Assembly (NCBI RefSeq): GCF_030384885.1
Contig: NZ_CP128613.1
Source of the DNA: Escherichia coli
Lineage (GTDB): Bacteria; Pseudomonadota; Gammaproteobacteria; Enterobacterales; Enterobacteriaceae
Length of the DNA stretch: 64,000 nucleotides
Strand: one strand, 5' to 3'
Positions 63,172-63,223 of the stretch are shown here, piece after piece; within the stretch, counting starts at the first letter, position 1, and every line of letters starts with the position of its first letter. The position numbers and the translations under genes were made by a program. Under the pieces are notes generated by a model. That model searched no databases. It saw only the letters and a list, made by a program, of their open reading frames with translations, and had not been told where the DNA came from.

Positions 63172-63223
63172 TGCGCATTCACTGGCGGCTCCTGCCGCCA
63201 TATTTATTAGAAAAGGAACATCT

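Follow-up and report, generated by a model that had tools for sequence, protein, structure and literature searches.

The dctM-dctP gap of an accessory TRAP transporter operon

The window analyzed here is a stretch of 64,000 nucleotides from the Escherichia coli contig NZ_CP128613.1. Its last 9 kb are occupied by an operon of eight co-directional genes separated by short gaps, with a gene for a TetR-family regulator oriented divergently (Table 1). Flanked by ytfB and rplI, the operon ends at about position 64195 (834-10596 in L001). Genes for five enzymes are followed by those for a TRAP transporter, whose permease and binding-protein genes had been named as such in the initial annotation. Both identities held, as the dctM product scored 459.8 bits against TIGR00786 (cutoff, 268) and the dctP product 233 bits against TIGR00787 (cutoff, 175). 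The CoA-transferase is a fused protein and the flavoprotein, of 693 amino acids, is fumarate-reductase-like; together with the hydratase, these two enzymes form a set whose logic is reminiscent of the carnitine (cai) pathway. About 1,460 to 1,480 of 5,426 complete E. coli genomes (~27%) carry this accessory operon, which is missing from K-12. A literature search found no paper citing the proteins of this operon and nothing on hairpins in TRAP operons.

Table 1. Positions of the operon genes, of the elements of the dctM-dctP gap and of the treB-treC hairpin in the window
Feature	Position	Strand	Basis or remark
TetR/AcrR-family regulator gene	54433-55080	-	RefSeq annotation of NZ_CP027579.1 (strain 2013C-4282; 99.9% identical to the window)
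Five enzyme genes (SDR, AP_endonuc_2 isomerase-like, enoyl-CoA hydratase, CoA-transferase, FAD flavoprotein)	55292-61350	+	Annotation; NCBIfam and Pfam on orthologues
dctQ-like TRAP small permease gene	61371-61847	+	NCBIfam and annotation
dctM-like TRAP large permease gene	61870-63171	+	TIGR00786; stop codon TGA
dctP-like TRAP substrate-binding protein gene	63224-64000	+	Cut by the window end; full gene of 972 nt in L001
Intercistronic gap dctM-dctP	63172-63223	+	52 nt
Hairpin 5′ arm, TGGCGGC	63183-63189	+	Sequence, fold and consensus scan; G-to-A allele at 63184
Hairpin loop, TCCT	63190-63193	+	4 nt; 85% of carriers have ACCT, with GCCT and ATCT as further alleles
Hairpin 3′ arm, GCCGCCA	63194-63200	+	Sequence, fold and consensus scan
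U-rich, interrupted tail, TATTTATTAG	63201-63210	+	6 of the first 8 are U; no U run exceeds 3
dctP Shine-Dalgarno sequence, AAGGA	63213-63217	+	6 nt before ATG; unpaired in predicted folds
treB-treC hairpin, GGGGCGCAATTGCGCCCC	17450-17467		7-bp stem, no U tract

A stem-loop had been noted in a 52-bp gap ahead of a dctP-like gene. This was borne out by the positions of the dctM stop codon (63169-63171) and the dctP ATG (63224). The two arms were also as described, with only the loop requiring correction from three nucleotides (tcc) to the four of TCCT. The hairpin has a perfect 7-bp stem containing 6 G-C pairs and is followed by a tail composed exclusively of A and U. The isolated structure had a predicted folding energy of −13.9 kcal/mol. 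RNA folding, which had been proposed as a check, recovered the hairpin in the MFE and centroid structures of every context that was folded (58, 76 and 241 nt). The stem is separated from the dctM stop codon by 11 nt and from the dctP Shine-Dalgarno sequence by 12 nt; the Shine-Dalgarno sequence and the dctP start codon were unpaired in the predicted folds. In a consensus scan of 8 kb, this hairpin was the best terminator-like match. A scan for promoters detected no promoter-like site for dctP near the gap, the nearest being located ~390 nt upstream, inside dctM. An Rfam search of positions 61000 to 64000, with E-values up to 10, returned spurious snoRNA and miRNA matches but no relevant family.

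Similar hairpins in the window and their RNA 3′ ends

Perfect hairpins with at least 7 bp, at least 5 G-C pairs and a loop of 3 to 8 nt were counted, and the numbers expected were obtained by shuffling. When the 52-nt gap was shuffled, such a hairpin arose in 0.13% of cases (P = 0.0013). In the 54 annotated intergenic segments of the window (6.8 kb), nine hairpin loci were present where 0.21 ± 0.48 were expected, an enrichment of about 40-fold; for the whole 64-kb window, the count was 13 loci versus an expectation of 5.7 ± 2.4. The dctM-dctP hairpin is, therefore, real and more than a chance occurrence. The z-scores for the folds of short contexts, at only −1.95 to −2.5, would favor the opposite explanation, namely, a pure chance match that adopts no structure in vivo. 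Given the P value for the gap and the ~0.2 hairpins expected against the 9 found in the intergenic DNA of the window, there is only a very slight chance that this explanation is correct.

Besides the dctM-dctP hairpin, nine members of this class were located outside ordinary coding sequence, and eight of these nine were situated at the 3′ end of a gene or at a known attenuator. The nine consisted of the pyrL attenuator (inside the pyrL leader-peptide open reading frame), the treB-treC gap and the 3′ ends of pyrI, cybC, fbp and its convergent neighbor, ppa/ytfP, paeA/ytfK, ytfE/cycA and fklB. Hairpins of this class overwhelmingly mark transcript ends in the source genome.

Published Term-seq data for K-12 (Adams et al. 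2021; PMC7815308, supplementary file 1) contain 3′ ends a few nucleotides after the ytfK, ytfP and fklB hairpins. For the treB-treC hairpin, a "primary" treB 3′ end with 425,606 reads is recorded 5 nt past the stem (PMC7815308). This is the strongest local 3′ end and is ~6.6-fold higher than the treC end, with 64,109 reads (PMC7815308). The 3′-end reads for treB and treC imply strong segmental differences inside the treBC operon. As the treB-treC hairpin has no U tract, its 3′ end was probably produced by trimming or by noncanonical termination. Adams et al. (2021; PMC7815308) and Dar and Sorek (2018; PMC6061677) explain many such ends by exonucleases that trim the RNA as far as a stable hairpin. 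Hairpins of the strength of that in the dctM-dctP gap, even with poorer tails, set the position of abundant RNA 3′ ends in E. coli. Since these sibling hairpins coincide with strong Term-seq 3′ ends, a 3′ end at the dctM-dctP hairpin is a reasonable expectation, and we consider that this hairpin probably marks an RNA 3′ end.

The likeness to the treB-treC hairpin is close, as both have a perfect 7-bp G-C stem and a 4-nt loop and both lie in an intra-operon gap of ~50 nt after the gene for a membrane transporter. The two differ in that the treB-treC hairpin is found among core E. coli genes and has a 3′ end mapped by experiment, and the dctM-dctP hairpin has the better tail.

The terminator potential of these elements was scored with a d'Aubenton-Carafa-type discriminant (d; threshold, 0), which was combined with ViennaRNA energies, so that the values are relative only. 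The dctM-dctP stem lies within the range of intrinsic terminators (G-C-rich, about 5 to 14 bp, loop of 3 to 8 nt). The window allele scored +5.3, the common allele +2.1 and the G-to-A allele −19 or lower. Other gene ends in the window gave similar values (+4.9 for ytfP, +1.4 for paeA and +0.3 for ytfK), and far higher scores were obtained for the pyrL attenuator (+42) and for AAAACGCCGACCAATGGTCGGCGTTTT, the bidirectional terminator after dctP that is shared by dctP and rplI (+25). The U tract of the dctM-dctP hairpin, UAUUUAUU, has 6 U in 8 with A at positions 2 and 6 and a longest run of 3, and the T-tail score was 2.62, compared to 3.9 to 4.7 for strong terminators nearby. As a terminator, the dctM-dctP hairpin appears to be borderline, at the threshold of the score, and would be weak and at best leaky.

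Leaky intrinsic terminators are known within operons, as in rplL-rpoB and rpsU-dnaG. The dctM-dctP element resembles these in having a G-C-rich tetraloop hairpin with a U-rich, A/U-only stretch immediately 3′, in its location between co-transcribed genes just past the upstream stop codon and in the expectation that expression of the distal gene would be reduced. It differs in that the U tract is interrupted, the score is at the threshold, the element is not conserved in orthologous operons and its RNA 3′ end is a predicted one.

Variation within E. coli and comparison with orthologous operons

The distribution of the element was examined by blastn of the 41- and 52-nt gap sequences against the 5,426 E. 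coli genomes. The dctM-dctP gap sequence was found in one place per genome in 1,461 carrier genomes and is, therefore, neither of the REP type nor a mobile repeat. A REP/BIME or other mobile repeat was ruled out on this count and because the window contains no second copy.

An identical 52-nt gap with an ACCT loop was present in 1,235 of the 1,461 carriers. The TCCT loop of the window is a rare allele that was also found in a metagenome contig (L039). Across alleles, the first loop position was A, T or G and the second C or T. One allele affected the stem, a G-to-A change at 63184 that breaks one pair without compensation; it was carried by five of the eight variant genomes fetched and by 3 of 12 metagenome contigs of E. 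coli. Outside the hairpin, one gap haplotype had three changes in the 5′ flank, and one A-to-G change adjoined the dctP Shine-Dalgarno sequence. The stem was kept in every E. coli allele that was sampled, among them that of L007, which diverges by ~9% across the compared region; the G-to-A change breaks one pair. When metagenomes were scanned with the conserved ribosome-binding site as the anchor, no intermediate forms of the hairpin emerged, only E. coli alleles that had already been seen and unrelated matches.

Three of the four independent changes within the hairpin fell in its four loop bases, the only sign of constraint on the element. By a simple binomial estimate on these four events, this bias has a probability of about 0.04 and is a weak signal; as an alternative to constraint, loops as such may be more mutable. 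Among the seven distinct E. coli alleles, six of the stem pairs were invariant, one was broken in one allele and none of the seven covaried, the alleles being too similar to one another for covariation. The compensatory changes across orthologous loci that define a conserved RNA motif were likewise not found (0 of 7 pairs, with the hairpin absent in the four non-E. coli lineages).

The island itself was variable. Comparison of the window (60243-64000) with L007 indicated that the island alleles are deeply divergent and mosaic, with 62 to 99% identity per 200 nt, versus 98 to 100% identity in the adjoining rplI-rpsF region. This pattern points to allelic lineages of considerable age or to recombination with other species. 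A match of 99% identity or more to the island allele of the window was present in only 1 of the 5,426 genomes. In strain cS76a (L029, 1601-2440; ~63203 in the window), an IS1A element was inserted in the U-rich tail directly past the hairpin; the target duplication is of 9 bp (CGCCATATT), and the insertion splits dctP from the rest of the operon.

Orthologous operons outside E. coli were obtained by a search with the DctP protein and retrieval of the encoding contigs. Whole operons syntenic at ytfB-rplI were present in Klebsiella huaxiensis (L011/L012; DctP 81% identical) and in two other Enterobacteriaceae from sequencing runs (L013, DctP 86%; L015/L016, DctP 78%). A fourth lineage was represented by an operon fragment (L018; DctP 86% identical) whose sequence begins 28 nt upstream of the ATG. 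A scan of genome contigs returned four loci only and no close orthologue.

The hairpin was absent from all four of these syntenic orthologous operons. In the three lineages where the dctM-dctP gap could be measured, it was AT-rich and 44 to 48 nt in length, i.e., 4 to 8 nt shorter than that of E. coli, and folded at −1.3 to −4.5 kcal/mol, no better than shuffled sequences. L018 has GTTAAC at the place of the 3′ arm of the E. coli hairpin. A ribosome-binding stretch, ATTAGAAA(A)GGAAC.TCTATG, is common to E. coli, L013 and L018, and the gap is, therefore, homologous apart from a local difference, the hairpin.

In all of the non-E. coli operon copies, dctP and rplI are separated by a convergently oriented gene for an EamA-family transporter (L011, 10030-10956; L013, 10009-10929; L015, 10015-10950; L018, 1032-1964). 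The E. coli copies are without this gene, and dctP leads straight to the bidirectional terminator shared with rplI.

These comparisons bear on whether the hairpin has any consequence. It could be a selectively neutral by-product, either a recent quasi-palindrome generated, for example, by template switching or inverted duplication in the E. coli lineage or a leftover of island assembly, that folds without a meaningful effect on expression. Such an origin is consistent with the absence of the hairpin from every non-E. coli orthologous operon even though the adjoining ribosome-binding region is common to L013 and L018, with the longer E. coli gap, with the lack of covariation, with the toleration of a stem-weakening allele and of an IS1 insertion and with the borderline terminator score. 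The ~40-fold intergenic enrichment and the location of the checked siblings at real RNA 3′ ends argue against it and make some molecular effect likely. A further, weak argument (about P = 0.04) is that the stem was kept and the loop varied across E. coli alleles that are roughly 5 to 10% different nearby. We regard a neutral by-product as a real possibility, though one that falls well short of an even chance.

The same data are relevant to a role at the DNA level, in which the 18-bp palindrome TGGCGGC-N4-GCCGCCA would serve as a protein-binding site, for example, an operator for the adjacent TetR-family regulator or a roadblock. The two halves of this inverted repeat match perfectly, and sites for dimeric regulators are typically of this size. 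At up to two mismatches, however, the window contains no related copy apart from one unrelated 1-mismatch site at 8215, and none is present in the promoter region of the TetR-operon pair (55081-55291). The palindrome occurs once per genome, is missing from orthologues that have the same TetR gene and lies 8 kb into the operon, an unusual place for an operator. A protein-binding site is, hence, very improbable.

A rearranged orthologous cluster was found in a more GC-rich organism (L017, 9001-18438), in which the enzyme genes and dctQM form one operon. In this cluster dctM comes last, ahead of a canonical terminator, GACGGGCCAATGCCCGTC, with a T-rich run, TTCTTTTTTTG (10 T in 11); dctP is convergent, on the opposite strand, and has its own upstream region of 340 nt. 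The terminator after dctM indicates that the dctM-dctP junction can be a transcript boundary in this cluster family. The E. coli hairpin differs from it in sequence and is not homologous. Descent of the hairpin as a relic of a terminator at the end of dctM was ruled out, as the L017 terminator is unrelated in sequence. A DctP homologue of a marine gammaproteobacterium (L008, 1009-5934; 55% identical) has dctQM pairs on both sides, in the order QM-P-QM.

Predicted effect of the hairpin on dctP expression

There is slightly better than an even chance that the dctM-dctP element operates detectably as an E. coli-lineage-specific weak intrinsic terminator, as a barrier to 3′ exonucleases or as both. 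In the proposed mechanism, the 7-bp G-C stem would form, on transcription of the operon, just beyond the region covered by a ribosome that terminates at the dctM stop codon. The mRNA channel of the ribosome is of such an extent that a stem 11 nt past the stop codon is just outside the terminating ribosome. With this spacing, and with 12 nt between the stem and the Shine-Dalgarno sequence, neither the terminating ribosome nor an initiating 30S subunit should prevent folding. Together with its A/U-only tail, the stem would act as a weak, leaky terminator, would impede 3′-to-5′ exonucleases or would do both, and a share of the transcripts would end, or be trimmed back, a few nucleotides past the stem. 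The outcome would be a stable upstream mRNA for the enzymes and dctQM and a smaller amount of dctP message, dependent on read-through. As there is no promoter-like site between the hairpin and dctP, the latter should depend on read-through and, hence, should be represented by less message than dctQM. With the gene order Q-M-hairpin-P, either a terminator or a 3′ stabilizer would reduce the amount of binding protein compared to that of the membrane subunits. We infer the 3′ end at the hairpin, its efficiency and its effect on the dctP:dctQM ratio, and this effect would probably be a modest fine-tuning and not an essential control.

The direction of this predicted effect is unusual. The dctM-dctP hairpin has the form of an intercistronic stabilizer, being a stable stem-loop in the gap of a polycistronic mRNA. 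In work by Newbury et al. in 1987 and Stern et al. in 1988, the REP elements of malE-malF and hisJ-hisQ were reportedly such stabilizer hairpins. In these operons, as in the present one, a stem-loop lies between the genes for the binding protein and the membrane subunits, and unequal expression through segmental mRNA stability has been proposed. REP elements occur in hundreds of copies, unlike the dctM-dctP hairpin, which is unique in the genome. The orientation also differs, as malE and hisJ are upstream of the hairpin and are favored, whereas dctP is downstream and would be disfavored. Intercistronic hairpins in transport operons usually yield an excess of binding protein, and a reduction of the binding protein relative to the permease is of no obvious benefit.

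The biologically expected excess of binding protein would be obtained if the hairpin were instead a 5′ stabilizer of a processed dctP mRNA. In this scheme, RNase E would cut at GC|AUU (~63176/63177), in single-stranded RNA just upstream of the stem, the hairpin near the new 5′ end would slow decay and the binding protein would be raised relative to the membrane subunits. RN|WUU is a cleavage motif of RNase E, and a sequence of this type lies 6 nt upstream of the stem. The Shine-Dalgarno sequence and start codon would also stay unpaired. The motif is, however, expected by chance about once per 64 positions, and a stem preceded by 6 unpaired nucleotides would protect poorly. A U-rich tail and a location directly past a stop codon are a better fit for an element at a 3′ end, and the orthologues manage without a hairpin. 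We give 5′ stabilization only a slim chance.

The initial annotation had suggested that a partial terminator or stabilizer within the operon could set the expression of the binding protein relative to the membrane subunits. A real, nonrandom and terminator-like structure is indeed present, and to this extent the suggestion stands; a conserved design feature would be a different matter, as the orthologues lack the hairpin and the score is at the threshold. From the comparisons made here, the hairpin does not appear to be a conserved design feature of the TRAP operon, given its absence in four orthologous operons, the lack of compensatory change, an uncompensated stem allele and a threshold score. 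Maintenance of the hairpin by selection as a regulator is unlikely, the lower confidence in selection than in a detectable effect being due to the orthologues without a hairpin, the lack of covariation and the toleration of a weakened allele. A more specific scenario can be envisaged in which the hairpin is of recent birth within the E. coli lineage, arising, for example, through template switching that copied GCCGCCA in inverted orientation, and constitutes a new intra-operon terminator that tunes down the TRAP binding protein relative to its permease. This birth would coincide with the absence of the EamA gene from E. coli, and the G-to-A allele would be a natural "off" variant. This scenario is a long shot.

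The dctM-dctP hairpin is an ordinary, weak and species-restricted representative of a well-known class. If functional, it would be one more short hairpin that uncouples neighboring genes of an operon, and a slightly unusual one in lowering the binding protein of a transporter, with its influence limited to the version of the operon in one species. No new question is opened by this element. Its main value is for annotation, as a probable transcript 3′ end in an uncharacterized accessory catabolic operon, and the G-to-A allele provides a natural test of the effect of the hairpin.

Three other items were observed in the window: a gene for a 581-amino-acid hypothetical protein between argF and tabA (4659-6404, minus strand), a transposase gene after ridA (11381-11836) and a lone RelB/DinJ antitoxin gene adjoining nrdG (22301-22540).
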